A DNA stretch of 64,000 bases from an uncultured Acidobacteriota bacterium (GCA_963786435.1 CAWAZK010000001.1:16021-80020); one strand, 5' to 3'; shown: positions 7,572-64,000, numbered from the stretch's first letter. Program-made: numbers and translations. Notes: generated by a model not told the origin, from the sequence alone.

Positions 7572-7623
7572 GGCGATTATGGCTACTCCACTCGGTTGAA
7601 AGATGAATTGAATGTCGCAGCAC

Positions 7624-16030: not shown

Positions 16031-16415
16031 GTGCGTGGCTTTCTTTAAGTATATATTCCGTTTTCGCCGCTTCCGTTCAAGGTTTTTCAAACATGTTTTT
16101 GAATTCATCGAAAGATCGCAAAGAGACTGAACAAAACAACCAGAAACGGAATTACAGGCATAGAGCTGGAAAAGGAAAGTATGGGGCTGAAAAAAGCTGT
16201 CTTTACACCACCCGATGGTGGTTGTCGGAAGATAAACGCGTGTCTGGGTGACTCCAGTGCTTGAACTCGTTGCGATTGGGATCTTTGGGCCTATGGTCTT
16301 CGCGCTCTGAGTTTAAGGAGATTTATTTCAACGGCATCATCAAGGCATCTCTGCTTTCGCGTTCAAGTATGGCGTGGCCGAACATTCCGCTGTGCAGGCC
16401 GGGCACGGCGGGGGA

Positions 16416-18522: not shown

Positions 18523-19433
18523 TCATCGCGAATTCTCTCCGTGACGCGCACGTGGATGGGATCGCTGCGGAAACCATCCTGATTTTCGAGCGTGACCCGA
18601 TCGCCTTCAGTTAGCTTTAGCATCGCGGCGTTCTTGATGCGATCCAAACCTGGTTTTCGGGCATAAGATCATCCAGCCAGGCATTGTTTTCCGTGCGTGT
18701 TATCGTGTGCATCGGCGCCCTGCCATAAATCAGCCGGAGATAGCCGGAGGGCGGCTGTTCGGGGGCTTGATAGACGGGCATGGGGTCGAAGTGGAGATCG
18801 TTCAGCGTTGAGGAATAGAGCTCGATCTTGCCGCTCGAGGTGGGGCTCCGGCGAGCCCACTGGACGGCCGAAGGTGAGCAGATAAGCAACATCGCGCGGG
18901 CCGAAGCACTGCGCAAATGCGGTCTCGGCCCCGTTCGGCGTTCCATAAGCCTTCATCACCGTGGAAAAGAAACCGGAGCCGACGCCGTGCGGAAATATCG
19001 CCACCGTCTCGGGCCCGTACTTCTGCTTGATCTCTTTCAGTTTCCCGGCAAACTGATCGAGAGCTTCATCCCAGGAGATGCGCTTCAACTTTCCTGCGCC
19101 ACGCGAACCCGTCCGCACCTGAGGATATTTAAGCCGGTCTGGATCATAGAGCAACTGCGTCCCGGAGTTGCCGCGAGCGCAGAGTTTCCCTTTGGTCATG
19201 GGGTGATTCGGATTGCCTTGCAGCTTCAGAACCTTGCCGTCTTTGACTTCTGCTAATACTCCGCAACGCCAGAAACACATCTCACAGTTGGTCGCGATCA
19301 TTTCAACGCGATCACCGCCCCGGTGCCCGGGAGGCCGTGATATCTGTTCTGCAACTGCACAGGTAGTTCCGGCGATCGCCGCACCGGTTGCCGATGCTTT
19401 CATAAAATCGCGGCGAGAGATTTTCGAATTCAT
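18399..19433 (-). pseudogene. Eroded Tat-dependent molybdopterin oxidoreductase catalytic subunit (PsrA/PhsA-like) with a large internal deletion and frameshifts
   Basis: The Tat signal SRRDFMKASA, the CxxC..C FeS motif (ATNCEMCFWRCG) and about 200 N-terminal aa are intact. The sequence then jumps frame directly into the C-terminal region (GKIELYSSTLNDLHFDPMPVY...ENQVWI) and shifts again into the molybdopterin-binding tail ([42 protein letters not shown]). About 450 central aa are missing. Confidence 0.8.
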
Positions 19434-26181: not shown

Positions 26182-26237
26182 CTGACGCAAAGCATCTTAC
26201 GGGCTGACTTGGTTAAACTTTTCTCTTGCAGCCTGAA

Positions 26238-32028: not shown

Positions 32029-35000
32029 TTAGCGAGTGGCATAGTAGTGAATGGTTGGAGTGATTATGAGAGAGAGCACCATCGAGATCAGGATTCCTCC
32101 GATGACCGCGATTGCGAGAGGTTGGAGCATCTGTGAGCCTGCTCCGAGTCCGAGAGAAAGCGGCAGCATGCCGGCCATGGTCGCCAGAGCCGTCATCAGG
32201 ATGGGGCGCAAACGGCGTCGTCCGGCTTGCACGACGGCGGCTTCGGCGTCGAGCCCCACGGCGCGAAAGCGCTGCGCGGCATCGAGCAGAAGAATGCCGT
32301 TTTTGGCCACGATGCCGACTACCATGATGAGTCCCATGAATGACGCGATGTTGAAGGTGGTGTTTGTGATGAGCAGCGCGAAGAAGACGCCCGAGACCGA
32401 AAGCAATGCCGAAGCCAGTATGGACAAGGGCGCGGAAAACGTGCGGAATTCAAAGAGCAGAACGATGAAAACCAGAACGATGGCAAGCAGCAGTACAAGT
32501 AAAAGATCGCGGAACGAGTTTTGCTGCTGTTCATAGGTTCCGCCATAGACGACGTGAATTGCGGGCGGCAGATGCAGTTCGGTGACCGCCTTCTGTACAT
32601 CGCGAATGCCGCTGCCCATGTCGCGGCCTTCCAGTCGCGCCGTTACGGCGACGTCGCGCTGAAGATCCTCGCGCCGGATTTCTGTTTGGCCGGGACTTTG
32701 AACGATGGAAGCGACACCTCCGAGAGTTGCGGTCCTTCCCGACGCGCTGTTGAGAATCGTGTTGCTCATCGTCGCCAGCGAGCGGCGATTTTCCTCCGGG
32801 TAGCGGACGCGAATGGTGTAGGCGCGATCGTTGGCGACTAGGGGCGTGGCTGCGGGTTCTCCTTCGAGAATAGCCGATGCATCGACGGCAGATCTCCTCC
32901 GGGGTAAAACCGCTGCGCGCGGCGATCGTCGGGTCGACCTGGAAGGTAGTCGCTGGACCGCTCATGGAGCTCTCGATTCCGTCCTTCAAATCGACCACGC
33001 CGTTCACCTTTTGAATCTCATTGGCAACGCGCGGAGCCCATTGGCAAAGCAGTTCGGGATCGTTGGAGAAGAGCTTGATCTCAATGGGCTCGGGGGCGCC
33101 GGTAAGATCGCCGATCATGTCCTGCAAACTCTGAGCAAACTCCACATCCACAGCAGGTTCACTCTTGGCAAATTGCGTGCGTGCGTCCGCAATGATCTCG
33201 TCCACTCCGCGGCTACGTTTGGTTTTCAGCATCACGGAGATGTCGCCCCTGTTTGCTTCGGTCACGGCCGCCAGTCCGAGTTGCAGTCCGGTGCGGCGCG
33301 CTATGCTCTTTACCTCCGGCATGGAGAGCAGGATCTGCTCCATGTGGCTGACCACGCGATTGGTTTCGGCGAGCGAACTTCCCGGCGGCATCAGATAGTC
33401 CACTACCAGCGCTCCTTCGTCCATCTCCGGCAAGAGATCGGAGCCGATAAATCGGTAGCACACCAGCGAGGCCACAATCAGCAGAAGACTTCCGCCAATC
33501 AGCCAAAGGGGGCGGCGCAGTGACGTAAGCAGGCACTTTTCGTAGAACGCGACAATGCGTCCGAAACTTCCCTGGAGGTTTTTCTCTTCATCCGGCAGCA
33601 AGCTCGCGGCTGTCTGTTCTTCCATTTCCGGCATGGGTGCCATTGTGCGAATGTTGTGCTCAGAGATGAAGAAGTGGCTGAGTGTGGGCGTCCATGTGAG
33701 CGCCAGCGCAAGCGAGGTAAACAGCGACACCCCTACGGTAATGGCCAGCGCGCGGAAGAACGTGCCGGTAACACCGCTGATTGCAACCAGCGGAAGAAAT
33801 ACAACCACCGGGGTGATCGTGGAGCCGAGGAGCGGGACCGTGATCTCTCGCAATGCGCTGCGAATTGCCATGGTGCGCGTTTGTCCGGCTTCGCGATGCA
33901 GAACGATGTTTTCCACCACGACGATTGCATCGTCGATGACCAACCCGACGGCGGCGGCCAATCCGCCGAGCGTCATCAGGTTGAAGCTTTGCCCAATCAG
34001 CTTGAGCGCGATCACCGTTAGCAGCACGGTGACCGGGATGACCAGCGCGGCTACAATCGAGGTGCCCCAGTCGCGGAGGAACAAGACCATGATGATCGAT
34101 GCAAGAACGATGCCAATCAGAATCGCATCGCGAACACTCCGGATCGACTCACCGACGATGAGCGACTGATCATAGAAAGGCTCGAGCTTCACTCCGGCGG
34201 GCAGAGTCTTGCGAAGTTCATCGACCTGCTGGTGAACCTCGGCGGCCACGCGCATGGTGTTGCTGTCGGGCTGGCGGTTGATGTTGAGCAGAACCGCAGG
34301 CTTTCCGTTGGCGGTGACGATCGTGTACACCGGTTTGACTCCGGGCACAACCTGCGCGACATCGGCAACGCGAATGGGAATGCCGGCGGGAGTTGTCTTG
34401 ACCACGAGCTGCGAGAGTTGATCCGGGTTCTGAACCTGTCCACTGACGAGGCCCAGCACGATCTGATGATCGGTCTGGAAGAGTCCGGGCGAGTCGATGA
34501 GGTTGGAGCGGCGCACCGCGTCCAGCAGATCCTGAACCGTCACACTTGCGGCAATCAGTTTCGCGGGATCGGGAACGATGTGGTATTCGGGCTCTTGGCC
34601 TCCCTGCACAACGACCGTGGAAACGCCATCGAGGCGATTGAGTCGCGGCTTGAGTTCGTAGGTTGCCAGCTCCCACAGTTTGGTTTGCGGAATTGATTGC
34701 GAGGTGAGGCTGTAACCCAGGATCGGAAATGAGGCGAAGGTCAGCCGGTTGCTCGTGATCTGCACAGTCGCGGGAAGACTCGCCCGCACCCGTGACAGCG
34801 CGGCGTCCACGTACTGCAGTGTCTGGAACATATCTACATTCCAGTCGAAGAACAGATTAATCTCCGCGGAGCCTCGGCTGGTGATCGAGCGAACACTGTG
34901 GAGTCCTGGGACACTGTTGACGGCCTCCTCGATGGGGCGAGTCACCGCGATCTGCATCTGGTCGATGGGCATCACGCCGTTGTCGAGTCCGATGACGATT

Positions 35001-35188
35001 CGCGGAAAATCTGTGGCAGGGAAGACCGAGATAGGAACCGAGAAGGCGAGATACGCGCCCAGGCAAGCCAGAGTGAGGACCACAAAAATAGTGGGCTTCG
35101 CGTTGCGTGTTAGCCAGTGCGCGTCCGGTTCGTAACTGGAGCGCATTCGCTGATACAGCTTGGTTGTGAACTCCGCCGAGGATGCCAT
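32029..35188 (-). pseudogene. RND efflux permease (AcrB/CzcA superfamily) with one +1 frame disruption near 32890-32893
   Basis: The 885-aa ORF is family-like up to ...TFQVDPTIAARSGFTPEE. The sequence SAVDASAILEGEPAATPLVANDRAYTIRVRYPEENRRSLATMSNTILNSASG... continues in the frame of ORF 32029..32769 to a normal C-terminus. The start overlaps the adaptor stop (TGATG). Confidence 0.9.
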
Positions 35189-36528
35189 CAGTTCTTCTCA
35201 GTTGTGCCACTGTTTGCAGGCACTGCATGTGTTGCAGGCTGAGCCTCTGCGGGTTGGACATCTGCAGGCTGCACCTGGGTTCCGTCGGGCAATCCATATG
35301 CGCCGGAGGCGACCACAATGTCGCTGGCTTTCAGACCTTCGACGATCTGAATCGAACCGCCTTGGCGGATTCCGGTCTTAACTTCGGTTAGGCGGGCGAT
35401 GTTGTCTTTTCCGACGACCATCACGCTGCTTTGGCCTTCACTGGCGGGAAGCACGGAGCTGAACGGTACAGCCAGCGCTGCCGGGATCTTCATTACCGAA
35501 ATTGAAAGATGTGCGCTGCTGCCGGGATGCAGCTTACCGTCCGGGTTTGCAGCTTGCACCCAAATTTCGATGGTGGTGCTGTTGGCGTCCACCGCAGGGC
35601 TGACGAGGGTGACCTTGCCTTCGAAAGGATTCGGGGCTCCCGGCAAAGTGAGGGTGGCGTTGTCGCCTACTTTCACCAGCGCGGCCTGCTCCTGCGCCAG
35701 ATGAGCCTTTGCAATGATCTTCGACGAGTCCACGATCACGAGCATCGGAACTCCGGCGGCTGCGGTTTCACCTTCATAAATTGAGCGGTCGGCAACGACG
35801 CCTGTGATCGGGCTACGTACCTCCGAGTAGCGAAGTTGCGCTGAGGCGGCCATGAACTTACCGCGTGCCGACTCCAACTGCGCTTTGGCTGACTTGAGTT
35901 GATCGCTTTTTCCAACAGCGCGAAGGGCGTCCAGGTGCTGCTGCGCAATGTCGTGCTGATTGCGCGCGTCGGTCAGTGATACCGCTGCCTGATCCACTTC
36001 TTTCCTTGGCAGTGCGCCTTCTTTATAGAGCTCTTCGCGGCTGGAATAAAGCTTCTGCTGAACTTCCAGCATCTGCCTAGTGGCGGCTTCATCCAGTTCC
36101 GCTTTCTTCCACTCTTCGGGGAGACTCGCGCGGGTAGCGATCGAGTAAGCAGCCTGCGCCTGTTCGAGGCCGCCTCGATTTTCAATGGCGGCTGCCGAAA
36201 GGTCGTTATTATCCAGTACGGCGAGCAATTGGCCCTGCTCCACGCGGTTGCCGCGGTTCACATAGAACCGCTTTACCGGAGCGTTGATCTTGGGAGTGAT
36301 GGCCGCTTGGTTGATGGGAAACAGCGTCGCCTCGCTCTCGACGGTTTGGACGAGATCGGTTGTCCGCACGATCGCGGTCTGCACGGTAACGATTGGCCTG
36401 ACTTCTTGCTCGGTTTTCTTGCAGGCAGAGAAGGGAAGCAGCATGGCCAGCATAAAGGGCAGATAGGCAAAGGCGCGAAGCTGGGGCAAGGAGAACCGCG
36501 AAGACTTCATTGAGACAGTGTTGGTCAT
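35188..36528 (-). CDS. RND efflux periplasmic adaptor (membrane fusion protein, HlyD family)
   Basis: Lipoprotein-type signal (LLPFSAC), coiled-coil hairpin and beta-barrel segments (VRSPITGVVADR, VTLVSPAVDANSTTIEIWV), positioned between the OMF and permease genes. Confidence 0.9.
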   Translation of the reverse strand: MTNTVSMKSSRFSLPQLRAFAYLPFMLAMLLPFSACKKTEQEVRPIVTVQTAIVRTTDLVQTVESEATLFPINQAAITPKINAPVKRFYVNRGNRVEQGQLLAVLDNNDLSAAAIENRGGLEQAQAAYSIATRASLPEEWKKAELDEAATRQMLEVQQKLYSSREELYKEGALPRKEVDQAAVSLTDARNQHDIAQQHLDALRAVGKSDQLKSAKAQLESARGKFMAASAQLRYSEVRSPITGVVADRSIYEGETAAAGVPMLVIVDSSKIIAKAHLAQEQAALVKVGDNATLTLPGAPNPFEGKVTLVSPAVDANSTTIEIWVQAANPDGKLHPGSSAHLSISVMKIPAALAVPFSSVLPASEGQSSVMVVGKDNIARLTEVKTGIRQGGSIQIVEGLKASDIVVASGAYGLPDGTQVQPADVQPAEAQPATHAVPANSGTTEKN

Positions 36529-36529
36529 A

Positions 36530-37846
36530 TCAGAGCGTCCCCGTCAGCGTTTGCAGATTGGCTAGCGCGAGTCTGTATCGAAGGGATTGGTCTACGTAGG
36601 TGTTGCGCGCGTTATTGAGGGTGTTCTGCGCGTCCACTACTTCGAGCGCGGTGGATTCGCCGGCCTGATAGCGCAGGTTGATGAGGCGTAGACTCTCGGT
36701 GGCGATTTCCACCGATTGGCGCAGCGTCGCCTGCGCGGTGAAGGCGGTATCTGCCTCGTGGTAGAACTCTTCCACATTGGCCAGCAGTTGCTTCTGCGCA
36801 ACCGTCAGTTCCAGCTTTGATTGATCGAAGCGGATGAGCGATTGCCGCACCCGGCTCCGGGTGGCTCCCCAATCGAAGACCGGTATATTCAGCGTCGCCG
36901 AGGCCGCGTAACCCAGATTGCGCACGCCTTCGGAGCGGGTTGCGAAATGGTTGGCGTCGATTCCGTAGTAGAAGTCCAAGGCGAGGCTGGGCAGGTATGC
37001 GGCGCGCGAGGCATTCACCTCGGCATGGCTGGCGCTCATTGCAGCCAGTGCGGCGCGCAGCTCTGGATTGTTGGTCGCGGCGGCTTCGCGCACTTCGGTC
37101 AGTGGCGGAAGAGGTGGCTCATCCTCCAGCCTGTCGGCGAGTTTGATGTCGGTGCTTACGCTTGGCAGGATCAGGACTGCGAGTTCGAGGCGCGCGTTCA
37201 GTAGCTCGGTCTGGGAATTTTCGAGTTCGCGCTTGCGATCATTGCATTGCAGTTGCGCCTTGAGCACATCCGAGTGCGCGGCCTCGCCCGCGGCCTCCAG
37301 CTTCTGGCTCAGGCTGAGGAAGTGCGCGGCGTCATCGGCGGCGGCAGTGGCGTTGGCTTGTTTCTGTTCGGCGCCCAGAACGGCGTAGTAGCTACGCACC
37401 ACCGTCACCACCAGTCCTCGCGCCGCAACCTCCGCTCTGGCGCGTGCCAAGGCTGCCACGGCTCCGGCTCTGCGGTAGTCGGCCCATTGCTGCACGCTCA
37501 GAAGTTGGTGGGCATTGCCTTGGCTGACATACTCGTGAACCGCGTTGTTGGCGATAAAGCGTCCTGTCAGAGTTCCGTTGCCTTGAGTGTAGAGGAACTG
37601 ATTGTTGTAGATGACGCCGGGCAACAGAGTGGAGCGTGCTTGCACGCGGTCTTCTCTTGCCAGCGCGGCATCGCCTTGGGCGGCGCGGAACTGCACGCTG
37701 TTGGCCTGTGCCATCTTCAGTGCTGCGCTGAGCGTGATCGCCTCGGAATCCGACGGCGCCGCCGGGGAACTCTGCGGCTGCGCCCAGATTCCGCCAACTC
37801 CAAGAAGCAGCAAGAGCAGCAGCATTGGATGGCGCAGACGCATCAT
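36530..37846 (-). CDS. TolC-family outer-membrane efflux protein
   Basis: 438 aa with a signal peptide and two OEP repeats (LSAALKMAQANSVQFRAAQGD...; ...ALEVVDAQNTLNNARNTYVDQSLRYRLALANLQ). First gene of the efflux operon. Confidence 0.9.
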   Translation of the reverse strand: MMRLRHPMLLLLLLLGVGGIWAQPQSSPAAPSDSEAITLSAALKMAQANSVQFRAAQGDAALAREDRVQARSTLLPGVIYNNQFLYTQGNGTLTGRFIANNAVHEYVSQGNAHQLLSVQQWADYRRAGAVAALARARAEVAARGLVVTVVRSYYAVLGAEQKQANATAAADDAAHFLSLSQKLEAAGEAAHSDVLKAQLQCNDRKRELENSQTELLNARLELAVLILPSVSTDIKLADRLEDEPPLPPLTEVREAAATNNPELRAALAAMSASHAEVNASRAAYLPSLALDFYYGIDANHFATRSEGVRNLGYAASATLNIPVFDWGATRSRVRQSLIRFDQSKLELTVAQKQLLANVEEFYHEADTAFTAQATLRQSVEIATESLRLINLRYQAGESTALEVVDAQNTLNNARNTYVDQSLRYRLALANLQTLTGTL

Positions 37847-38025
37847 GCCGCGCTCTCCACAAAAACCATCTCCACGGGATTACTCTCCACAATTTCAGCG
37901 CGAAAGAATTCCAACGCTGTTGGTTATGGCATGATTATCTGCGACATACCTGAAGAGTTTCTGAAGGCTTTATTAATACCTGACTAATGTGGTAAAGAGC
38001 GCGAAGCGATACCATTTCATTCAAA

Positions 38026-38700
38026 ATGCGAATTTTAGTTGTCGAAGATGAACGCACAATGGCCGAGCTTCTCAAGCAAGGTCTGGAGGAGGAGCAGCAT
38101 TCTGTCTGCGTTGCCGCCGATGGTCTTTGCGCGCTCGATCACGCGGAGGGTGAGGAGTTTGATGTAATTGTGCTCGACGTGATGCTGCCGGGAATCGACG
38201 GCTTTGAGTTTGCCCGTCGCCTGCGTGCCGGGAAGAACCACACGCCGATCCTTATGCTCACCGCGCGCGACGCAGTCACCGACATTGCGCGCGGCTTGGA
38301 TACAGGCGTTGACGACTATATGACGAAGCCTTTTTCGTTTGTCGAACTGCTGGCTCGGCTACGTGCGGTTGCACGCCGCGGCCATGCTCCTCGACCATTG
38401 ACGCTGCAGGTTGGCGATCTGGTTCTCGATCCGCTTTCGCGCCAGGTGACTCGCGCCGGGTGTGAACTCCACCTTACGGCAACCGAGTTCAAACTGCTGG
38501 AGTTGCTGATGCGGCGAGCCGGGCGCGTGGTGGAGCGCGATACGATTGCAGACGTGCTGTGGGGGACACTGGACGATGTCGGCGAAAACACCCTCGACGC
38601 ATTCATCTCGCTGTTGCGCGGCAAGGTGGACCGCAGCGCGCAGTACAAGCTGATTCATACGGTCCGGGGCGTGGGATACATGCTGCGGGAACGCCAATGA
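38026..38700 (+). CDS. OmpR-family response regulator (CusR/CopR-like)
   Basis: MRILVVEDE...DVIVLDVMLPGIDGF...MLTARD...DDYMTKPF, plus a winged-helix output (LTATEFKLLELLMRRAGRVV...IHTVRGVGYML). Confidence 0.93.
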   Translation: MRILVVEDERTMAELLKQGLEEEQHSVCVAADGLCALDHAEGEEFDVIVLDVMLPGIDGFEFARRLRAGKNHTPILMLTARDAVTDIARGLDTGVDDYMTKPFSFVELLARLRAVARRGHAPRPLTLQVGDLVLDPLSRQVTRAGCELHLTATEFKLLELLMRRAGRVVERDTIADVLWGTLDDVGENTLDAFISLLRGKVDRSAQYKLIHTVRGVGYMLRERQ

Positions 38701-51712: not shown

Positions 51713-53396
51713 GTGCTCAGGGAATTGCGGGTAGAAAACTACGCCGTTATCGACAACGTGGTGGTTGAGTTTGGGGCTGGGTTGAACCTGCTGACCGGCG
51801 AAACCGGCGCGGGCAAGTCCATTCTGATCGACGCACTGGCGCTGCTGTTGGGCGAGAAGGCATACAGCGATGTGGTGCGCCACGGCGCGGAGAAAGCCAC
51901 GGTCGCCGCCGTTTACGAGAGCGACGATCCGGCCATCGCTCAGGTGCTAGAGGAGAACGGAATCGACGGCGCTGGCACGGAGATCATTCTCCGCCGCGAC
52001 ATTGCAGTCAACGGCAAGGGCCGCGTCTTTATCAATAACCAGCCCGCAACTGTGGCCGTGCTGAAGGCCCTAGCGCCTCGCCTGGCAATTGTTCACGCGC
52101 AAAATCAAGCCATTCTGATGTTTGATCCTCCTGAGCGTTTGGCGCTGCTGGATGCCGCCGCAGGCTTGAGCCTGAATGCCGTTGCGGAGGCTTATGCAAA
52201 GTGGAGAGAGGTTGCGCGGCGGATTGCGGAGTTGGAAAAAGGCGAGCAGGAAAAGCTGCGTCTCGTCGATCTGTGGAAGTTTCAATTGAAGGAGATTCGC
52301 GAGGCCAACCTTACGGCGGGAGAGGATCAGAGGCTCGAAGCGGAAAAGCGCGTATTGGCTAATTCCGAGCGAGTATACGGTGCGGCGATGGGCGCATTCG
52401 ACGTGCTGTATGAGGTGGAGGAGTCGGCGATTGCGCGCCTTGGTGCCGCAGCCAAGCACCTGGAAGAGTTGTCGCGCTTCGACGATTCGTTCAAGGAAGC
52501 GCTGAGCCAGCTTGAAAGTGCGCGCATTACGGTAGAGGACGTTGCCACGACTCTGCGCGACTTCGCCGATGGCATGGATGCTTCGCCCGAGCGCCTCGCC
52601 GAGGTGGAAGATCGCCTGGCGGTTCTCGACAAGCTCCGCCGCAAGTACGGCAAGACTTTGGAGGATGTGCTGGCCTTTGAGCAGGACATTGCGGGAAAGC
52701 TCAACGACATTGAAAACAAGGATGAGCTGCTCGCAACTCTGCGCAAGGAACTGGCGTGTGACGACAGCCAAGTATCTGGACGAAGCTCGCTATTTGAGTA
52801 AGCAGCGCTATGAGATAGCGCGGAAACTTGAGAAAACGGTTGAAGCGGAGATCAACGATCTGGCGATGAAGGCGAAGTTCAAGATCGAGGTTTCCGGTTC
52901 GGACGAGGAGGGCAACTGGAGCGCCTCGGGCTTTGACCAGGTGGCTTACCTGATCTCCACCAATCCGGGGGAGCCGATGGGGCCCATCGAAGAGATCGCC
53001 TCTGGCGGAGAACTCTCGCGGGTGATGCTGGCGCTGAAGGCCAGCGTGGAGGCCGGCCGCTCGAACAGCAAGGGTTCGGATGCACAGCGTTCACTGGTTT
53101 TCGACGAAATCGATACGGGCATCGGTGGCCGCGCTGCGGATGCCGTGGGCAAAAAACTGAAGGCGCTATCGACAAGCAAGCAGGTTCTCTGCATCACCCA
53201 TCTGCCGCAGATTGCGTCGTTTGCCGACCGGCATTACCTGATCGAGAAACATGAAAGCGCTGGGCGCACGAAAACAACGGTTCGTCCCTTGAGTCCCGAA
53301 GAGCGGCGCAGCGAGATTGCGCGGATGCTGAGCGGGGCCAAGGTCACCGAGGCTAGCCTGCAGAACGCCGAGCAACTGATTCGGGCAAACGCCTGA
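51713..53396 (+). pseudogene. recN: DNA repair protein RecN with one +1 frame disruption at about 52757
   Basis: Walker A (LTGETGAGKSIL) at the N-terminus; GGELSRVMLALK and LVFDEIDTGIGG at the C-terminus. Frame 1 reads ...LRKELA and the next frame continues VTTAKYLDEARYLSKQRY... after skipping t52757. Confidence 0.92.
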
Positions 53397-53657
53397 GTGG
53401 TTCGCCTCTGTTTACCGTAAGGGCACTCTGTGGAACTATCCCCGGCCCGTCTCACCTGCTAGAATAAGGAGAGATCAACGACGCAGCTTGTGCCCCTAGG
53501 CAAGGCGCTATTCGCCTATGGTCGGGCTGCTGGATGGTGGTTTCCGCACTTCTATGGGTTGTAATGGTGGGGAAGTGTGCGGGGCCATAGACTTACAAGA
53601 TGTGATGTGGCTCGTGTGGCATCTAGGTGCTGGCGGGCTTCATCTGAATCGAAGCGA

Positions 53658-54631
53658 ATGACCGAAACCAAAACTCTTCTGCTGTTAAAGCCCCGTGGAT
53701 TCTGTGCGGGCGTGGTGCGCGCCATTGATATTGTGCGCATTGCCCTGGAAACCTTCGGCCCGCCGATTTACGTCCGCAAGGAAATCGTACACAACAAGTA
53801 TGTGGTCGAGGACCTCAAGGGCAAGGGCGCCATCTTTGTGGATGACGTGGAGGAAGTACCCAATGGCGAGCGCGTGATCTACAGCGCGCACGGTGTTGCG
53901 CCATCGGTACGCGAAGCCTCCAAGTTGCGAATGTTGCGCGTCATTGACGCGACCTGTCCGCTGGTGACCAAGGTTCACGTGGAAGCGATCCGCTTTGCCA
54001 AGGATGGCTACTCGCTGATCCTGATCGGGCACCTCAATCATGATGAGATTGTCGGCACACTCGGCGAGGCTCCTGAGGTGACCCAGGTGGTCAGTAACCC
54101 GGAGCAGGTGGCGCGCATCGTTGTGCCGGACCCGGATCGTGTCGCTTACCTGACACAGACAACGCTTTCGGTCGACGAGGCGAAGGACATTATCGAGGCG
54201 CTCAAGGCGAAGTTCCCCAACATCCGCGGCCCGCAGGCGCAGGATATCTGCTACGCCACGGAGAACCGTCAGGTGGCAGTAAAGAACGTTGCCGAGCAGG
54301 CAGACCTGGTGCTGGTGGTTGGATCGCCGAATAGCTCGAACTCGAATCGGCTTGTCGAGGTAGCGCGGAAATCTTGGCACTAAATCGTTTCTGATTGATA
54401 CCTGTCAGGACATCGACGAGAAATGGTTGGAAGGCGTAAAGACCGTCGCTCTTACTGCGGGTGCTTCGGCGCCGGAAATACTGGTTCAGGAAGTGATCGC
54501 CTTCCTTGGGAACAAAGGCTTCTCGAATATGCACGAGACTTGAAGTGATGCCGGAGCATGTACGATTTGCGCTGCCTCCGGAGATCGTGGCCGCGATCTC
54601 CGCGGCTTCCGAAACACCAGGGGTGGGGTAA
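53658..54631 (+). pseudogene. ispH: 4-hydroxy-3-methylbut-2-enyl diphosphate reductase with two +1 frame disruptions (about 54375 and 54538)
   Basis: [35 protein letters not shown] and [55 protein letters not shown]...NMHE follows in the next frame, and LEVMPEHVRFALPPEIV... in the third. Stop at 54629-54631. Confidence 0.9.
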
Positions 54632-54637
54632 GAATCC

Positions 54638-56583
54638 ATGGAAGCAAGTTCGGCGCATTCGACTTCGATTCGATTTGGAAAAATTGCAGGTCTGGCTGCG
54701 CGGCTCAATAGTTCGATTCAGGCGGCGCAGGAAGTTCCTGTTTGCCCGGCAGCACGAAGATGGCTGGTGGTGCGGCGAATTGGAAGCCGACACTACGCTG
54801 GAATCCGATTATATTTTTCTGCACACCGTTCTCGGCACTCGCGACGAGCGCCGCTTTCAGCAGTGTGCAGACGAAATTCTGCGTCATCAGAATGAGGACG
54901 GCGGTTGGCCGATTTACCAGGGTGGCCCTTCGAACATCTCGGCCAGCGTGAAAGCGTATTTTGCGCTGAAAATGTGCGGCTATTCGCCGGACGATGAGCG
55001 CATGGCGCGCGCCCGCGAGCGCATCCTCGCCATGGGCGGCGTGCCCGCCTGCAATACCTTCAGCAAGATCTATCTCTGCGCCCTTGGGCAATACGATTAC
55101 GATGCGGTCCCGGCAATTCCGCCCGAGATTGTGCTGTTTCCCAACTGGTTCTGGTTCAACATCTACGAGATCTCTTCGTGGTCGCGCGCGATTCTGATTC
55201 CGCTTTCGATCTGCTACGCGAAGAAGCCGTTCAAGAAAATTCCCGACGAGTGGAATATCGACGAGTTGTTTCCGCATGGGCGGCACGGCAGTTCGCTGCG
55301 CCTGAAATGGGATAGCAAACTGATTGGCTGGCGGAATTTCTTCCTCGTTCTGGACCGTATGGTTCACGCCTTCGAGCGCGTGCATGTGCGCCCTCTGCGC
55401 TCGATTGCATTGAAAGCGGCGGAAGAAGTGGATGCTGGAGCGCTTCGAAATGAGCGATGGACTGGGAGCGATTTATCCTTCGATCCTGAATTCGATCATT
55501 GCGATGCGCTGCCTCGGCTACTCGCTCGATGATCCGCAGGTGATTCGCGCTCTCGACGAATTTGAAAAGCTGGGTATCGAAGAAGGCGATCGCTTCCGAA
55601 TGCAGCCCTGCGTCTCCCCCGTGTGGGATACCGCCTACGCCCTGTTTGCCCTAGGTGAGAGCGGCGTTGAAGCGGCGGAGCCGCGCATGGTGAAGGCCGC
55701 CGAGTGGATGCTCAAAAAGCAGAATCGCCGCAAGGGCGACTGGTCGGTTAAGGTCCCAATGCAGAACCCGGCGGCTGGTATTTCGAACATAACAATGAGT
55801 TCTATCCCGACGTGGACGACACCGCGCAGGTGCTGCTCGCACTGAACCACATTGAAACCAAGGATGCGCGATTCCAGAGCGAGTCGGTGCAGCGCGGAAT
55901 TCAGTGGGTGCTGGCCATGCAGTGCAAAAATGGCGGCTGGGCGTCCTTCGATAAAGACAACGACCGCATGGTCTTCCAATACGTTCCCTTCGCCGATCAC
56001 AATGCCATGCTCGATCCGGCGACGGTTGATATTACCGGACGCGTGCTGGAGTGCCTTGCCGCGCATGGCTTTACCCTGGAAGATAAACCGGTCATGCGCG
56101 CCATCGATTTCATCCGCAAGGAACAGGAATCCGATGGCTCGTGGTTCGGGCGCTGGGGCGTCAACTACATTTACGGCACCATGTGCGTGCTGCGCGGTCT
56201 GGACGCGATTGGCTTCGATAATCACGACGCGATGATTCAGCAGGCGACCGAGTGGCTGCGCATGATGCAAAATCCCGACGGCGGTTGGGGCGAGACCATC
56301 GGCTTCTTACGATGACGTAAATCTGAAGGGAATGGGTTCCAGCACCAGTTCGCAGACTGCATGGGCGGTGCTTGGATTGATGGCGGGCGGAGATTACCGC
56401 TCGGAATCGCTGGCGCGCGGAATCGCTTACCTGCTGGATCATCAGCAAGCCGATGGCGGTTGGAGCGAGATTCCCTACACAGGCACGGGATTCCCCCGCG
56501 TCTTCTACCTGAAATATCACGCCTATCCGTGGTATTTCCCGCTGATGGCGCTGGCTAAGTACGCTCGCAACCAGGGAGAGTAG
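54638..56583 (+). pseudogene. shc: Squalene-hopene cyclase with four frame disruptions (about 54734 +1, 55428 +1, 55757 -1, 56304 +1)
   Basis: QW and DxDD-region motifs are spread over four frames: ARQHEDGWWCGELEADTTLESDYIF, HQNEDGGWPIY, WMLERFEMSDGLGAIYP, NAEPGGWYFEHNNEFYPDVDDTAQ, MQCKNGGWASF, EQESDGSWFGRWGVNYIYGT, MQNPDGGWGE, SYDDVNLKGMGSSTSSQTAWA, HQQADGGWSE. Confidence 0.93.
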
Positions 56584-56657
56584 AGTAAAACGTCCGCGGT
56601 TTCAGTAATTAAGCGCAGCCTGGAAAGGCTGCGTTCATACTTTCGGAGAGATCGATT

Positions 56658-57674
56658 TTGAAAGCTTTTGTAACCGGAGCAACAGGGTTTGTGGGGAGTC
56701 ACGTGGCACGCCTGCTGGCAGAGCAGGGAGCCGACCTGCGTCTCCTGGTACGGGCCGGAAGCCGGCAGGAAAACCTTGAGGGACTGCGCGCGGATCTTGT
56801 CACCGGCGACCTTACCGATCCGGCATCGCTGCGCAAGGGAATGGACGGTTGCGAAGCAGTCTTTCATGTGGCCGCCGATTATCGCCTGTGGATTCGCGAT
56901 CCGAAGCCGATGTATGCGGCCAACGTGGACGGCACCGCAGCCGTGATCGAGGCGGCCCATGCCGCGGGCGTGCGCCGCACGGTGTACTGCTCCTCGGTGG
57001 CGACGCTTGGATTTGGCTATGACCGCAAGGCGGTGAACGAAGAGACTCCGGTTGACGTTGCCGACATGATCGGTCACTACAAACGCTCCAAGTATTTGGC
57101 CGAGCGCAAGGCTGTGGAGCTTGCGGCCAAGGGCGCTGAGGTAGTGATCGTCAATCCCAGCACTCCGGTTGGTGAGCAGGACATCAAGCCGACGCCGACC
57201 GGGCGCATCGTGCTGGATTTCCTGCTGGGAAATTTTCCCGCCTACATGGAAACCGGGATGAACCTGGTGGATGTTCACGATGTTGCGCGCGGGCATCTGC
57301 TGGCATTCGAAAAGGGACGTCGCGGCGAGCGCTATATCCTGGGCGGAGAGAACCTCACGCTGAAGCAAATTCTCGACCTTCTGGCGGAGTTGACCGGCTT
57401 GCCATCGCCCACAATGAAGGTTCCGCACTCGGTGGCAATGGCTTTTGCAGCCTTTGACCAAACCTTCAACGGATACTTGAGGAATCGCGAGCCAAGAGCA
57501 ACAATCGAAGAGGTTCGCATGGGTAAGAAATTTATGTGGGTGGATTCCGCCAAGGCGGAGCGTGAGCTGGGATACACGCACGGCGCGGTAGGCGAGGCAC
57601 TGGCGCGTGCGGCTCGGTGGTTTGTGGCAAAAGGCTACGCGCCGGCTTACGAGGCGATGTGTCCAACCGCATGA
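56658..57674 (+). CDS. hpnA: Hopanoid-associated NAD-dependent sugar epimerase/dehydratase-family protein
   Basis: Intact 338 aa with VTGATGFVGSHV, FHVAADYRLW and YKRSKYLAE. Position directly after shc. TTG start. Confidence 0.88.
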   Translation: MKAFVTGATGFVGSHVARLLAEQGADLRLLVRAGSRQENLEGLRADLVTGDLTDPASLRKGMDGCEAVFHVAADYRLWIRDPKPMYAANVDGTAAVIEAAHAAGVRRTVYCSSVATLGFGYDRKAVNEETPVDVADMIGHYKRSKYLAERKAVELAAKGAEVVIVNPSTPVGEQDIKPTPTGRIVLDFLLGNFPAYMETGMNLVDVHDVARGHLLAFEKGRRGERYILGGENLTLKQILDLLAELTGLPSPTMKVPHSVAMAFAAFDQTFNGYLRNREPRATIEEVRMGKKFMWVDSAKAERELGYTHGAVGEALARAARWFVAKGYAPAYEAMCPTA

Positions 57675-58415
57675 GCATGAATGCAGTCGAGTTCGGATTT
57701 GTGGCGGCGCTGGAGAGAGAGGTTTCCGGCCTGGTACGGGGCTGGAGCCGTTTTAATGTGCGCACGCCGAACGCGCAGCGAAAAATCTACTCGCTCAGAG
57801 AATGCCGTGCTGATCTGCGCTGGCACTGGGGTTGACCGGGCGTATACCGCTACGAGAGCTCTCATTGAGAAGTGCTCGCCGAGGGTGATAATTTCTATAG
57901 GGTTTGCTGGTTCGTGTGTGCCAAATCTGCACCCGGGTTCGGTGGTGGTTCCGGCGAATGTGTTGGAGGCGGCTACAGGTAAAAGCTTTCGTTGTGCTTT
58001 CGGCTGCGGGCAGTTGGTCACGCTGGATCGAGTGGCGGGCAAAGCTCTGAAGCAGGATGCTTTCGCCCGTTTTGGCGCATTGGCCGTAGATATGGAAGCC
58101 GCCGGCGTTGCCGCTGCAGCAGCCGAGTGTCGCAGGGAATTCGCGGCGATCAAAGTGATTTCCGACGACGCGGAGGAGGATCTTGAGTTCCTTTCAAGAT
58201 TCGTGAAGCCGGAGGGCTTCGAGACCGGGCGTTTCATCGCGCACATTGCGTTGCGCCCCGGACTGTGGCCGAGCGTGGCGGCATTGAAGCGAAACAGTAA
58301 ACTGGCAGCCGCGGCTCTGGCGAGCGCGGTGAGCGATTGCACAAGTGACTGGCGGAGCTTTTTCGGCCAAGCACTGCGATGCTGCAGCACAAGTTTGATG
58401 AGAGAGGGTTGTTGA
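57671..58415 (+). pseudogene. hpnG: Hopanoid-associated nucleosidase/phosphorylase (adenosylhopane nucleosidase) with one +1 frame disruption in 57781-57800
   Basis: ATG at 57671 overlaps the hpnA stop (ATGA). The N-terminus MSMNAVEFGFVAALEREVSGLVRGW... is in one frame; ENAVLICAGTGVDRA...SIGFAGS...AVDMEAAGVA (PNP_UDP_1-like) is in the next. Confidence 0.75.
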
Positions 58416-58419
58416 AAGA

Positions 58420-59542
58420 ATGGAAGTTACTCCTAAAACGGGGGCCGCTCTACCGGCACTGGATTCGATTCCTGACCGGATGCTGGCCGCCGTTTATTAC
58501 GGACAGAATGATATGCGGCTGGAGACGGTTTCCGTACCGAGGATCGGTCCGGGCGAACTGCTCGTGCGCATTCATAGCTGTGGTATTTGCGGCACGGATC
58601 TTAAGAAGATCTCAACGGGTTCACACTCGGCCCCGCGCGTCTTTGGCCATGAGATGGCCGGGGTGGTGGTGGCCCGTGGCGCTGGCGTCACCAGGTTTGC
58701 CGAGGGAGACCGCGTAATGGTCTTCCACCATATCCCCTGCGGCAACTGTTATTACTGCGAGCGCAAAGTGTTCTCGCAGTGTCCGGTGTACAAACGGGTG
58801 GGCACCACGGCGGGCTTCGGCGAGCCATCCGGCGGCGGCTTCTGCCGAGTACATCCGGGTGATGGACTGGATTGTCGAAAAGGGCGTAATTGCGATTCCG
58901 GATTCGGTAAGTTTCGATCAGGCTTCCCATATCGAACCGGTGAATACGGTGTGGAAGGGAATTGAGACGCTGGCGGTTAGCAGGGCGAAACCGTGCTGGT
59001 GATCGGGCAGGGGCCCATCGGGTTGATGCTGGGCAAATTGGCCCAACGTGCAGGTGCAAACGTAATTACTTCCGATTTGTTCCCGCAGCGGCTTACAATT
59101 GGGGAGCGCTACGGATTAACCCAGTCGATCGATGCCTCTCGAGTGCGATGTCGTGCAGGCAATTCGCGAGAGAACCGAGGGCCGTGGCGCGGACGCAGTG
59201 ATCCTTGCCGTAGGCGGCAGCTCGCTGATCCGGCCGGCGATTGATGCGGCGCGTTTCGGCGGGCGGGTGCTGTTATTTGCGCAGACGGTTCGGGGTGAGG
59301 TCGTGATCGATCCTGCCTCGGTTTGTGTGGACGAGAAAACGTTACTTGGTTCCTATAGCGCATCGGTGGAACTGAATGAGGAAGTGGCTCAATTTGTCTT
59401 CAGCGGCGAGATGGACCTGGCCGGGCTCTACAGTCACCGGTTCCCATTGGCTCAGTCGCTGGAAGCTTTGAGATTAGCTGCGCATCCGCAGCCGGACACG
59501 ATGAAAATCGCGATTCAGCCATGCAGCGTCTGGGAAGGATAG
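58420..59542 (+). pseudogene. Zinc-dependent medium-chain alcohol dehydrogenase (sorbitol/threonine-dehydrogenase-like) with three frame disruptions (about 58843 +1, 58982 -1, 59140 +1)
   Basis: CGICGTDL, GHEMAGVV and the structural-Zn CGNCYYCERKVFSQC are in frame 1. AEYIRVMDWIVEKGVIAIPDSVSFDQASHIEPVNTVWKGI, GETVLVIGQGPIGLMLGKL and ECDVVQAIRERTEGRGADAVILAVGG... lie in shifted frames. Confidence 0.85.
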
Positions 59543-59546
59543 CAGA

Positions 59547-60596
59547 GTGAACGGACAAATGACGGCAGCAATCCTCTACGGCAAAGAGGACGTAAAGATC
59601 GAGCGGGTACCGATTCCAGAGTTGGAGAACGGTGAGGTACTGATTCGCGTTCAGGCCGCGTTGACCTGCGGCACCGATCTTAAGGTGTATCGCCGCGGCT
59701 ACCATGCCAAGATGATCGTTCCACCGGCGCTGTTCGGCCATGAGTTTGCGGGAGTGATCGAGAAGGTTGGCCCGGAGGTCAAGAACTTCAAGGTGGGGCA
59801 GCGCGTGGTCGCGCTCAACTCGGCTCCCTGCGGACAGTGCTTCTTCTGCAAGAAACATCAGGAGAATCTGTGCGAGAACCTGCTGTTCAACAACGGCGCT
59901 TATGCGGAGTTCATTCGCATCCCGCGTCGCATTGTTGAAAACAATATGCTGGTGGTGCCCAAGGAGATCAGCTTTGAAACCGCAGCACTCACTGAGCCTC
60001 TGGCATGCGTGCTGCGCGGGTTGCATGAAACCGGGGTGAAGATCGGTGAGACGGTTACGGTGATCGGAGCCGGACCCATCGGCCTGATGTTTATGCAGGT
60101 GGCCGCTATCATGGGCTGCGACGTAATCGCAGTTGTGAAACACGATGAGCAGGTTCTCACGGCGAAGCACGCCGGAGCCAAGAAGGTAGTGGTGTTTCCC
60201 AAGGTAGCCGATCCGATTGAGGCAGTGCGCGATCTGACTCCGGAGCGCCGCGGTTCCGACGTAGTGATTGAAGCCGTCGGCCGTCCCGAAGCCTGGGAGT
60301 GGGCGATCGACATGGTGCGCAAGGGCGGAACAGTCAACCTGTTCGGCGGATGCGCCAAGGGAACGCGGGTGCAATTGAATACCGAGCGCCTGCACTACTC
60401 GGAGATTACACTGAAGGCTACATTCCATCACACTCCCGATACGGTGCGCCGTGCCTTCGCACTGATTGCCGAGCGCAAAATCAAAAGTGCGGACTACATC
60501 ACTGGGGAAGCACCTCTCTCCAAACTGCAATCCGTGTTGCGGGAAATGCTGACACGCGGCGGCGAGATCAAAACCGCCATCATTCCTGGACACTGA
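59547..60596 (+). CDS. Zinc-dependent medium-chain alcohol dehydrogenase (intact paralogue)
   Basis: 349 aa with CGTDLKVY, GHEFAGVI, CGQCFFCKKHQENLC and the Rossmann motif VIGAGPIGLM. A GTG start lies 7 nt after GGAAGGA. Confidence 0.9.
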   Translation: MNGQMTAAILYGKEDVKIERVPIPELENGEVLIRVQAALTCGTDLKVYRRGYHAKMIVPPALFGHEFAGVIEKVGPEVKNFKVGQRVVALNSAPCGQCFFCKKHQENLCENLLFNNGAYAEFIRIPRRIVENNMLVVPKEISFETAALTEPLACVLRGLHETGVKIGETVTVIGAGPIGLMFMQVAAIMGCDVIAVVKHDEQVLTAKHAGAKKVVVFPKVADPIEAVRDLTPERRGSDVVIEAVGRPEAWEWAIDMVRKGGTVNLFGGCAKGTRVQLNTERLHYSEITLKATFHHTPDTVRRAFALIAERKIKSADYITGEAPLSKLQSVLREMLTRGGEIKTAIIPGH

Positions 60597-60609
60597 TAAG
60601 GAAAGACGA

Positions 60610-61631
60610 TTGACGTCATTTGTGCCCAGCACTCATTCAAACGGCGCCGGTTCATCCGGCGCGAATCAAAATTCCAGCGACATCGAAACTCTGCTGGCTC
60701 GCGGATGGGCAAGCCTGCCGCCGGAGTACGCCATTCCTGCGGTTGCGCCCTCGCTGGATGAGGCGCGCAATTACTGCCGGAGGCTGGCTACTTCGCATTA
60801 CGAGAATTTTTCGGTTGCGACCTGGTTTTTGCCCAAGCGTCTGCATCAGCATTTCTTCAATGTTTATGCTTATTGCCGCATCTCCGACGATTTAGGTGAT
60901 GAGGTTGGAGATACCCGCGTCTCGCTCGCGTTGCTTGACCGCTGGGAGCAGGAGCTAAACGCCACCTACAGCGCGCTTGAAGGGACTGCTGCAGGCGCGA
61001 CGGCATCCCGTCTTCGTCGCGCTAGCCGAGACGATTCGGAGTTGCGCGATTCCCAGGCATGAGTTCAGCGATCTGCTCATGGCATTCCGTCAGGATCAGG
61101 CGGTCACGCGCTATGAAACATTCGACGAACTGCTTGGCTACTGCAGAAATTCTGCGAACCCCGTCGGCCACCTCGTGCTCTATCTCTGCGGATACAGGGA
61201 TGAGGAACGGCAGCAGCTGTCTGACTTCACCTGCACGGCCCTGCAACTGGCAAATTTCTGGCAGGACGTTTCGGTGGACTGGAAGAAGGGACGCGTCTAT
61301 CTGCCGCTCGAAGATCTTCGCCGCTTCGGCGTGAGTGAAGCTCAGATTGCTGAGGGCTGTTTCAACAGTCAGTTCCGCGAACTTGATGCGCTTCGAGGTG
61401 GAGCGGGCGCGTCAGTGGTTCGAGCGCGGACTTCCCTTGGTGAAGATGGTGAACCGCTCGCTTGCGCTGGATCTCGAACTGTTCAGCCGGGGAGGGTTGG
61501 CGATTCTTCAGGCGATCGAAAAGCAGGATTTCAACGTATTGGCGCGACGCCCCAGTTTAAGCCGCTTCCGTAAGGTTGAGTTGGTCTTCCGCGCGCTGGC
61601 CGGCCGGATCGCATTAGGAAGAGTGGGATGA
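60610..61631 (+). pseudogene. hpnC: Hydroxysqualene synthase (squalene synthase-like HpnC) with two +1 frame disruptions (60970-61003 and about 61385)
   Basis: SHYENFSVATWFLPKRLHQHFFNVYAYCRISDDLGDE in frame 1; HPVFVALAETIRSCAIPRHEFSDLLMAFRQDQ...LQLANFWQDVSVDWKKGRVYLP in frame 2; MRFEVERARQWF...LELFSRGGLAIL in frame 3. Confidence 0.85.
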
Positions 61632-62568
61632 GCGACACTGGTATCAGCGACACCAAGAAACATGCCACGCTGCAACTGACCACAGCCTACAGCGTATGCC
61701 GCCATATTGCGCGCTCCTCGGCGAAGAATTTCTATTACGGTTTCATGTTGCTGCCTGCTCGAAAGCGCAATGCACTCAGCGCCGTTTACGCTTTCATGCG
61801 TCATGCTGACGATCTGAGCGATGATCCGGGCATGACGCTGCCAGAGCGGAGGATAAAGCTCAGCCGAGTTCATCGAGATCCTATCGGCGCTCGTTTGAAA
61901 GCGGTCGCACCGATGATCCGGTCTTCCTTGCACTGCGTGACTCCCAGCAGCGATACAGCATTCCGATGGAACTGCTTGAGCAACTGGTGGCAGGAACGGC
62001 GATGGACGTCTGCGAGGGTGGCGAGCAGAACGGTACCCCGCCGAACGATGCCCCGCGAGTGGTCTACACCAGTTTCGATGAGCTTTACAACTATTGCTAT
62101 CACGTCGCGTCGGTCGTGGGTCTGGTCTGCATTCGCATCTTCGGCTATCGCGACCCTGTTGCCGAGCAGTATGCCGAACACCTCGGCATCGCCTTCCAAC
62201 TCACCAATATTTTGCGCGATGTCAAAGAAGACGCAGCCATGGCTCGCGTTTATCTGCCGCAGGAAGATCTTGACCGCTTCGGCGTAAATCCTGCCGAGCT
62301 AGGCTCGGGTGTTCCCATGGAGAAGTTGCGTCCGCTGCTGGCGTTTGAGGCCGAGCGTGCGCGCGAGTACTATACTTTCGCCGACCGCCTGCTTCCTCTG
62401 ATTGATGAGGTCAGCCAGCCAGCGCTCTGGGCGATGGTGGAGATCTATCGTGGCATCCTCGACCGAATTGAGCTCAAGCAGTTTGATGTGTATTCCGAGC
62501 GCATGCGCCTCTCGCTGGGCGATAAACTGAAAATCCTGGCCAAAGGATTCGGGAAGAGACTATTGTGA
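61628..62568 (+). pseudogene. hpnD: Presqualene diphosphate synthase (HpnD) with probably two +1 frame disruptions (about 61862 and 61896)
   Basis: SAKNFYYGFMLLPARKRNALSAVYAFMRHADDLSDD in frame 1; AEFIEILSALV in the second; ESGRTDDPVFLALRDSQQRYSIPMELLEQLVAGTAMDV...YCYHVASVVG...FQLTNILRDVKEDAAMARVYLP in the third. The start overlaps the hpnC stop (ATGA). Confidence 0.85.
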
Positions 62569-64000
62569 GCGCCACGGTTGTACCGCGCGAAGCTGCACCG
62601 CGCGAAACAGAAGCGAAGCTTCCGAGTGTTGGCGTTATCGGTGGTGGGCTCGCCGGACTCTCAGCCGCCTGCGCACTGGCCGACGCCGGTTACAAGGTGA
62701 CGCTCTTTGAGCGCAGAGCATTTCTCGGTGGCCGTGCATCCTCCTATGAGCATCCCGGCACCGGCGAGGTAGTGGACAACTGCCAGCATGTGCTGCTGGG
62801 CTGTTGCACCAATCTGCTGAATCTTTATCACCGCCTCGGCGTCGAGGACAAAGTGCGCTGGTACAAGCGCATCACGTTCATCGAGCCCGGCGGCCGCTCC
62901 AGCTTCATCGAAGCATCGTCTCTACCCGCCCCCTTCCACTCCGCGCTTTCGTTTCTGCAATACAAGTTGCTTTCGCTGCGCGATAAGCTCGGCATCGCCC
63001 GGGCCTTGGCTGCGTTACTGGCCGGAGTGCCGGAAGACAGCAGCGAGGACTTCCTCTCCTGGCTGCGACGCAAAGGGCAAACGCAAGCTGCCATTGACCG
63101 GTTCTGGGCTCCGGTGCTCATCAGCAGTTTGAATGAAGACCTCGATAAGTCTTCGGTCAAGTATTCCGCGATGGTGTTCCGTGACGCTTTTCTCAAGTCC
63201 GCCGAGGCCGGAAAGATGGGCGTGCCGACGGCTCCGCTCTCAGAAATTTACGGAGTGGCCGAAGAATACATTCGCTGCACGAGGCGGCGAAGTTCTGTTG
63301 CGCAGCGGAGTCGATGCCGCGTCGTTTGGTGATGGCGTCAACGGCAACGTAACGCTGCGTTCCAATGATCGCGATTTCATCTTCGATTACGCGATCAGCG
63401 CGATACCGTTTCATGCGTCTCGGGCGCATCTTGCCGCAATCAGCGGCGAGTGAAGCACTGCAGCAGAAGGTAAGTCATCTCCGGACGGTGCCGATCACCG
63501 GAATCCACCTCTGGTTCGATCGCGAAGTGACAGAGCTGGAGCACGCTGCATTGCTGGATCGCAACATTCAGTGGATGTTTCAGAAATCGAAGATCCTCAC
63601 GAGTTCTGCCGCACATTCTGCAGACCAGTCCGCCAACGGCGGCGGCAGCTATCTGGAACTCGTGGTGAGTTCGTCGAGACACCTGCTGGAGATGGGCCGC
63701 GCGGAGATTATCGAACTCGCGATGAAAGAATTGGCAGAGTTCTTTCCCAGCCGCTCGCAATGCAAAGCTCGTGAAGGCGACCGTGATTAAAGAAGTTCAC
63801 GCGACCTTCGCGCCCGCACCTCTGAGCGAGGAATTCCGCCTTTGTCCTTCGACTCCCTGGCCGCGGCTATTTCTAAGTGGCGATTGGACTGCGACAGGTT
63901 GGCCTTCCACAATGGAAGGCGCGGTGCGCGCCGGCTATCTGACGGCAGAAGCTCTTTCCAAAGCTGCCGGAAATGCACAGCAATTCATCATTCCGGATCT
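62565..64000 (+). pseudogene. hpnE: FAD-dependent hydroxysqualene dehydroxylase (HpnE) with three +1 frame disruptions (about 63276, 63418, 63761); the 3' end lies outside the window
   Basis: A GTG start overlaps the hpnD stop (GTGA). GVIGGGLAGLSAACALADAGYKVTLFERRAFLGGRA is the dinucleotide-binding fold. Later segments ARGGEVLLRSGV..., LGRILPQ...ITGIHLWFDREV... and AKLVKATVIKEVHATFAP...LFLSGDWTATGWPSTMEGAVRAG each lie in the next frame. Confidence 0.85.

Follow-up and report, generated by a model that had tools for sequence, protein, structure and literature searches.

Single-base frame breaks across recN, ispH and the hopanoid cluster of an uncultured acidobacterium are very probably uncorrected long-read consensus errors

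Tracts of neighbouring frameshifted genes are a feature of genomes under reductive evolution, such as those of Mycobacterium leprae and recent endosymbionts, where nonsense codons, deletions and relaxed selection accompany the frameshifts. Genes fragmented by single-base insertions and deletions (indels) are also found in low-coverage long-read assemblies (PMC9262707; PMC12313526). Here we analyzed a 64,000-nucleotide stretch of DNA from an uncultured Acidobacteriota bacterium (GCA_963786435.1, CAWAZK010000001.1:16021-80020; hereafter the window), the last part of which carries recN, ispH and a hopanoid gene cluster with reading frames interrupted again and again by single nucleotides. The tract resembles the fragmented genes of long-read assemblies in that its single-base indels are private to one assembly, in that removing them restores full genes, and in that the pattern is confined to long-read bins; it differs in that the changes are non-homopolymer insertions packed into a single stretch of 11 kb or more, with a density ~28-fold that of the preceding 52 kb. 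With the pseudogene tracts of reductive evolution it shares several neighbouring frameshifted genes, but it has none of their nonsense codons, deletions or relaxed selection. An earlier sequence-only reading of the window had offered two explanations, namely localized, insertion-biased sequencing or assembly error and a very recent wholesale inactivation of hopanoid and late isoprenoid genes, and had held that the sequence alone could not separate them. Comparative sequence largely does so. The first explanation is strongly supported, and the second finds no support in selection, stop codons, indel spectrum or the pattern across sequencing technologies. We conclude that the frame breaks are, very probably, long-read consensus errors left uncorrected in a local patch, and not mutations.

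To place the window among its relatives, we used the hpnA-like open reading frame (ORF; 56658-57671) as a query and recovered 80 syntenic loci, all from Acidobacteriota metagenome bins of the Terriglobales/Korobacteraceae type. The closest of these have the same gene order and 86–88% DNA identity over 51.6–64 kb, and the host organism is a Terriglobales/Korobacteraceae-like acidobacterium. Its source contig, from a soil genome bin and deposited in NCBI and ENA, measures 497,499 bp, a size that fits a long-read assembly. We aligned positions 46.5–64 kb of the window with eight syntenic relatives (75–87% nucleotide identity over the aligned locus), and later with 12, using MAFFT. At the protein level, 7,554 ORFs from 115 related loci were compared with the window by tblastn, and corrected proteins were scored against NCBIfam/TIGR models with curated cut-offs. 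The long-read or short-read status of each locus was judged from contig naming and from PMC12313526.

The alignment with eight relatives recovered all 18 frame breaks that had been listed before, one-to-one and within 20 nucleotides of the positions given, and the call of 16 single-base gains and two single-base losses was correct for those sites. A 19th break, an extra C at 58358 within the last ~13 codons of the hpnG-like gene, was absent from that list. The tract therefore holds 19 coding single-nucleotide indels in ~11 kb (52756 to 63742), comprising 17 insertions and two deletions, and all of them are private to the window in the alignments with eight and then 12 relatives. The left edge of the tract falls between 49.4 and 52.7 kb, and on the right it may run on past 64000, where the window stops. 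In unambiguous alignment blocks, each break appears as a lone extra or missing base amid otherwise conserved sequence. The tblastn comparison revealed frame-switch junctions at 13 of the listed sites with 9–76 supporting loci each (in recN, ispH, shc, hpnG, hpnD and hpnE, and at 61380 in hpnC), and at the three sites in the first alcohol dehydrogenase gene and the first hpnC site (~60991) with a weaker 1–5 loci per strand. Between 46.2 and 52.7 kb, no junction had more than three supporting loci among the 115 related loci.

Removing or filling single bases, and nothing else, restored ten uninterrupted genes on the plus strand (recN, ispH, shc, hpnA, an hpnG-like gene, two zinc-dependent alcohol dehydrogenase (ADH) genes, and hpnC, hpnD and hpnE), in keeping with the earlier observation that the tract shows no nonsense codons and no large deletions. 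The corrected RecN, IspH, SHC, HpnA, HpnC and HpnE proteins all score above the curated NCBIfam cut-offs and cover essentially the whole profile, so that the gene names proposed from sequence stand for these six and are weaker for hpnD and hpnG, which fall below their cut-offs. The first gene, recN (51713-53396), has an extra G at 52756 (junction at ~52763, 44 loci), and its corrected product matches positions 1–562 of the 563 in TIGR00634 with 508.6 bits (cut-off 407.85). In ispH, also known as lytB (53655-54631), the extra bases are a G at 54365 and a C at 54539, with junctions supported by 70 and 37 loci, and the corrected protein scores 454.7 bits against NF002189 (cut-off 444). Squalene-hopene cyclase, encoded by shc (54638-56583), is interrupted by insertions at 54729 (A), 55426 (A) and 56304 (T) and a one-nucleotide deletion at 55753, with 35–76 loci per junction; once corrected it scores 748.7 bits against TIGR01507 (cut-off 431.1) and is 647 amino acids long, the same length as its best homologues, to which it is 94–95% identical. 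The gene for the hpnA-type hopanoid-associated sugar epimerase (56658-57674) is intact and reaches 486.1 bits against TIGR03466 (cut-off 367.65).

The hpnG-like nucleosidase/phosphorylase gene (57671-58400) carries an extra C at 57792 in addition to the one at 58358, and its assignment to the hpnG family is tentative because its TIGR03468 score of 76.8 bits lies under the cut-off of 187.1. The first ADH gene (58420-59542) has insertions at 58842 (C) and 59142 (A) and a one-nucleotide deletion at 58978. Its corrected 373-amino-acid product aligns nearly full-length with medium-chain dehydrogenase models, all below curated cut-offs, and the orthologue in the related locus L116 has ADH_N and ADH_zinc_N domains. 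The second ADH gene (59547-60596) is intact and, like hpnA, had been recognized as such. In the squalene synthase gene hpnC (60610-61631), extra bases at 61001 (C) and 61380 (A) correspond to junctions with only 4–5 loci (seen at ~60991) and with 42 loci, respectively, and the corrected protein scores 351.5 bits against TIGR03464 (cut-off 250.45). The gene for the hpnD-like presqualene diphosphate synthase (61628-62568) has insertions at 61862 (A) and 61877 (G), with a junction supported by 48 loci, and its product falls just under the TIGR03465 cut-off (243.7 bits versus 278.6). Last, hpnE, encoding hydroxysqualene dehydroxylase (62565-64000, running past the window end), has insertions at 63275 (C), 63418 (T) and 63742 (C) with 18–45 supporting loci; its corrected product scores 456.6 bits against TIGR03467 (cut-off 283.05).

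As in other bacterial hpn clusters, then, the corrected SHC, HpnA, HpnC and HpnE pass equivalog cut-offs, and the gene order is kept in all related Acidobacteriota loci. The difference is that two ADH genes separate the hpnG-like gene from hpnC and that the HpnD-like and HpnG-like proteins score under their cut-offs. These tandem zinc-dependent medium-chain dehydrogenase genes (58420-60596 in the window, 11756-13949 in L116) have threonine/iditol and scyllo-inosose dehydrogenase as their best models, below cut-off, and their arrangement is kept in the relatives examined; the pair seems to be an addition to the hopanoid cluster that is typical of the lineage.

Several other length differences lie in or near the tract. 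A one-nucleotide deletion at 58416, in the spacer between the hpnG-like gene and the first ADH gene, had not been listed before. The recN-ispH spacer contains five small window-private indels (53403-53609), which are not assignable to error or to real change because several relatives also differ in length there. Window-private length changes that keep the frame are two 6-nucleotide deletions in hpnC (60987), a 15-nucleotide insertion in hpnD (62034-62048) and a 9-nucleotide insertion near the start of hpnE (62597-62605); all of these are located within variable segments and probably reflect true polymorphism, not error. At 48031 and 49356, private insertions were considered as further frameshifts and rejected, since neither is coding: one comes shortly past the stop codon of tolB, the other between the ribosome-binding site and the ATG of that gene.

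The concentration of breaks at the end of the window, which the sequence-only reading had pointed out, is real. Their density is ~1.6 per kb after 52.7 kb and at most 0.06 per kb before it, a rate ratio of ~28. Even granting that reading's two upstream sites at which we found no family match (23912 and 45748), 18 of the 21 events are packed into 11 kb (binomial P = 2e-11), and a scan statistic reached the observed clustering in none of 200,000 simulations. For the sequence before the tract, a scan of Joint Genome Institute (JGI) metagenomes with an 850-amino-acid protein (26226-28775) returned upstream relatives of at most 62% identity and without usable synteny, so we judged integrity there by the continuity of Pfam profiles across 50 upstream ORFs. 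Domain coverage was complete except in the eroded molybdopterin oxidoreductase described below and in one clear split gene, an RND/AcrB-type transporter on the minus strand (32029-35188), in agreement with a break proposed earlier at ~32892. One of its ORFs (32531-35188) covers profile positions 12–735 and the other (32029-32769) positions 779–1018, and the total length is 1 modulo 3, corresponding to one extra base near 32.77–32.89 kb. It is the only clear frameshift upstream and is probably the same kind of error as those in the tract.

Within the tract, the events are spread uniformly (Kolmogorov–Smirnov p = 0.92). At the tract rate, 2.0 untouched genes are expected and two are observed, hpnA and the second ADH gene, with a chance of zero events of 0.20 for hpnA (1 kb) and 0.19 for the second ADH gene; their intactness needs no special explanation. 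The breaks thus follow position: recN, a DNA repair gene, ispH and the hopanoid genes are struck at the same density. This bears directly on the possibility of genuine, very recent pseudogenisation, in which a burst of single-base insertions, restricted to this neighbourhood, would have cost the lineage recN, ispH and hopanoid synthesis. The indels are truly in the deposited sequence, and a single pathway, late isoprenoid and hopanoid synthesis, accounts for most of the affected genes, as such a loss would have it, yet recN and ispH are hit as densely as the hopanoid genes, which points to position and not function. The genome does carry some true pseudogenes. On the minus strand beside an ArsR-type regulator, a TAT-exported molybdopterin oxidoreductase (18399-19433, adjoining 17487-17888) keeps its signal peptide, its Fe4S4 domain, the first 46 of 353 Molybdopterin profile positions and a Molydop_binding fragment, and has lost its central ~500 codons. 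This is a genuine eroded gene, as had been noted, unlike the tract with its indels only.

If the breaks were errors of assembly, breaks of this kind would be expected in other assemblies of like technology and not in short-read ones, and the other assemblies of the locus bear on this point. The comparison with the closest related genomes showed the breaks to be absent from every one of the eight to 12 relatives, and it also revealed private breaks of the same kind in some of those relatives. In the 12-relative alignment, private coding indels whose length is not a multiple of three number 17 in the window, 30 in L016, 8 in L049, 6 in L116 and 10 in L009, all of them bins with Flye-style 'contig_' names. 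In these long-read bins the private coding indels are mostly non-homopolymer +1 insertions, located at differing positions that include the insides of hpnA and the second ADH gene. Three short-read assemblies (L006, L010 and L011) have no private coding frameshifts, with private indels only in intergenic spacers, and a fourth (L003) has one private 5-nucleotide coding deletion and no single-nucleotide ones. In L016, the 30 private coding indels within the 12-kb cluster stand against 82 private substitutions, a ratio that is biologically implausible. L049 is patchy like the window, with 8 of its 10 private single-nucleotide insertions lying between the equivalents of 56.1 and 60.2 kb. Gene calling in L116 splits shc, hpnD, hpnE and a peptidase M13 gene. 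Pseudogenisation would require four other long-read bins to have undergone parallel decay at different sites while their short-read sister lineages stayed clean.

By name, L016, L049 and L009 are Microflora Danica (MFD) bins. The MFD long-read bins were assembled from Nanopore reads only; Flye (--meta --nano-hq) was followed by a single Medaka round, no short reads were used for polishing, and the bins of lower coverage showed reduced coding density (PMC12313526). For Nanopore R10.4 data, ~40x coverage is needed to avoid indel-driven frameshifts (PMC9262707).

The spectrum of the changes is likewise unlike that of natural mutation. Natural bacterial indels are deletion-biased and arise mainly from slippage in repeats. 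In the tract, insertions outnumber deletions 17 to 2, the inserted base equals a neighbouring base in 3 of 17 cases where 45% would be expected for random insertion (P = 0.017), and homopolymer runs at the insertion sites never exceed 2. This is the opposite of replication slippage, and both the insertion bias and the non-homopolymer context oppose a mutational origin. Such a spectrum points to random errors at low depth and not to systematic ones in homopolymers. The same non-homopolymer spectrum recurs in the other long-read bins of the locus.

The uniform direction of the changes, with 17 of 19 events adding a base, could in principle reflect programmed recoding, in which ribosomal +1 frameshifting or transcriptional slippage would be needed for expression of the genes. 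The sites have no shared motif, though. A GGCGG pentamer lies 3–4 nucleotides upstream of 4 of the 17 inserted bases (54729, 55426, 58358 and 58842; P ~9e-5), but it was picked out post hoc, and the enrichment was not replicated among the private insertions of L016, L049 and L116; it may be chance or is unexplained. No site is conserved, with every orthologue reading in a single frame at every site, and up to four recoding sites in one gene would, to our knowledge, be unprecedented. With neither a motif nor conservation in orthologues, we rejected programmed frameshifting, the probability of which is vanishingly small.

We then considered the traces of selection that recent gene loss would have left. 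In the affected genes, 63 of 268 window-private substitutions (23.5%) fall at codon positions 1 and 2, the lowest share among the nine taxa compared (range 0.235–0.345), and the codon-position spectrum across these taxa gave no sign of relaxed selection in the window. If some 20 indels had accumulated during a neutral era, many changes at positions 1 and 2 would be due, and a purifying pattern is seen instead. After correction there are no in-frame stop codons in the tract, where 3.5% of random substitutions would create one, or about seven per 200. Nineteen frameshifts over eight genes would thus have arisen with zero nonsense codons and zero large deletions. The purifying spectrum also leaves room for few neutral substitutions and would imply about as many indels as neutral substitutions, and mutation-accumulation studies in bacteria give indel-to-substitution ratios of ~0.1. 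Moreover, ispH is normally essential where the methylerythritol phosphate (MEP) pathway is the only route to isoprenoids, and its loss is hard to square with this usual essentiality. Genuine pseudogenisation is, on these grounds, very unlikely. A narrower form of it, in which a real, very recent and confined insertion-biased mutational burst over at least 11 kb (for example, error-prone repair synthesis) silenced recN, ispH and the hopanoid pathway together before substitutions could follow, we regard as extremely improbable.

A third possibility concerns how the consensus was made rather than the organism. Reads from co-occurring relatives, which are 85–93% identical in the cluster, could have been recruited at polishing, with the heterogeneous pile-up giving rise to spurious inserted bases. 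Samples of the same kind have yielded many bins of closely related Acidobacteriota, conservation among relatives is slightly higher in the tract than in upstream DNA (86–87% versus 84–85%), and the patchiness of errors in L049 would fit as well. A mixed population would, however, be expected to leave mosaic substitutions, and the private substitution spectrum of the window looks natural. We consider such mixing unlikely. In any case it is a sub-variant of assembly artefact and leads to the same annotation, and with it included we are close to certain that the frame breaks are an artefact of assembly.

A simple route to a local patch of consensus errors can be proposed from the company that the window keeps. 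Its source assembly would most likely be Nanopore-only, with Flye as the assembler and a single Medaka polish. Across the final 11 kb or more, the consensus would probably have been drawn from too few or poorly resolved reads, in a local trough of effective depth. Random single-base insertions and a few deletions could then survive polishing at ~1.6–2 per kb, with the rest of the contig corrected down to ~0.02–0.06 per kb.

Four points weigh against attributing the tract to consensus errors. First, we infer both the low local coverage and, from comparison with the other loci, the window's own sequencing platform. Second, the non-homopolymer insertions of the tract are not the textbook Nanopore spectrum of homopolymer length errors, mostly deletions, although they match the other long-read bins studied here. 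Third, a ~28-fold local rise in error within one contig calls for a cause, and the trough in depth is a putative one. Fourth, exact-protein look-ups with the intact genes, the frameshifted fragments and the corrected proteins found no independent assembly of the same strain across the tract; the source contig is the sole record of the frameshifted fragments, and for the corrected proteins there is no record at all. The clusters of closest SHC homologues had no same-strain member, and a search with a 105-amino-acid peptide across two hpnE junctions returned matches of 86% identity at most. Although a Logan contig (ERR11523672_2541033; 3,243 bp) is 100% identical to positions 34955-38197 and so places the strain in run ERR11523672, no Logan contig covering the tract was found. 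Set beside the privacy of every break, the natural substitution spectrum and the confinement of such indels to long-read bins, these points leave uncorrected consensus error as the explanation that we hold with high confidence. Most likely, recN, ispH and the complete hopanoid cluster (shc, hpnA, the hpnG-like gene, the two ADH genes, and hpnC, hpnD and hpnE) are intact in the organism.

Elsewhere in the window, an ORF on the minus strand (16416-17309) combines regions 2 and 4 of an extracytoplasmic function (ECF) sigma-70 factor with a following zf-HC2 anti-sigma N-terminal motif. These parts are usually two adjacent genes, as at 15458-16108 and 14587-15468, and the single ORF could be a natural fusion or the result of a lost stop codon or a frameshift. 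Also on the minus strand, adjacent and intact genes for a 4'-phosphopantetheinyl transferase, a cytochrome P450 and an AMP-binding/PP-binding protein (adenylation plus carrier) at 5555-9522 may form a minimal secondary-metabolite module. No tRNA or Rfam features were found within the window.

As deposited, the bin would score as lacking ispH, squalene-hopene cyclase and HpnC, HpnD and HpnE, leading to a false call of a lineage with no hopanoids and a broken MEP pathway. The genes should instead be annotated as intact, with frameshift-corrected translations and a 'sequence quality' flag, pending polishing. The same trouble affects several public long-read bins of related Acidobacteriota, as in L016 with its ~30 coding frameshifts in 12 kb. 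Because error density can vary ~28-fold within one contig, whole-genome quality metrics can mask badly affected patches, and since long-read bins carry such errors, surveys of pathway presence should use frameshift-aware gene calling or polished assemblies. The tract holds no new biology and is of low biological interest in itself; it is a useful warning for catalogue-based pathway surveys.

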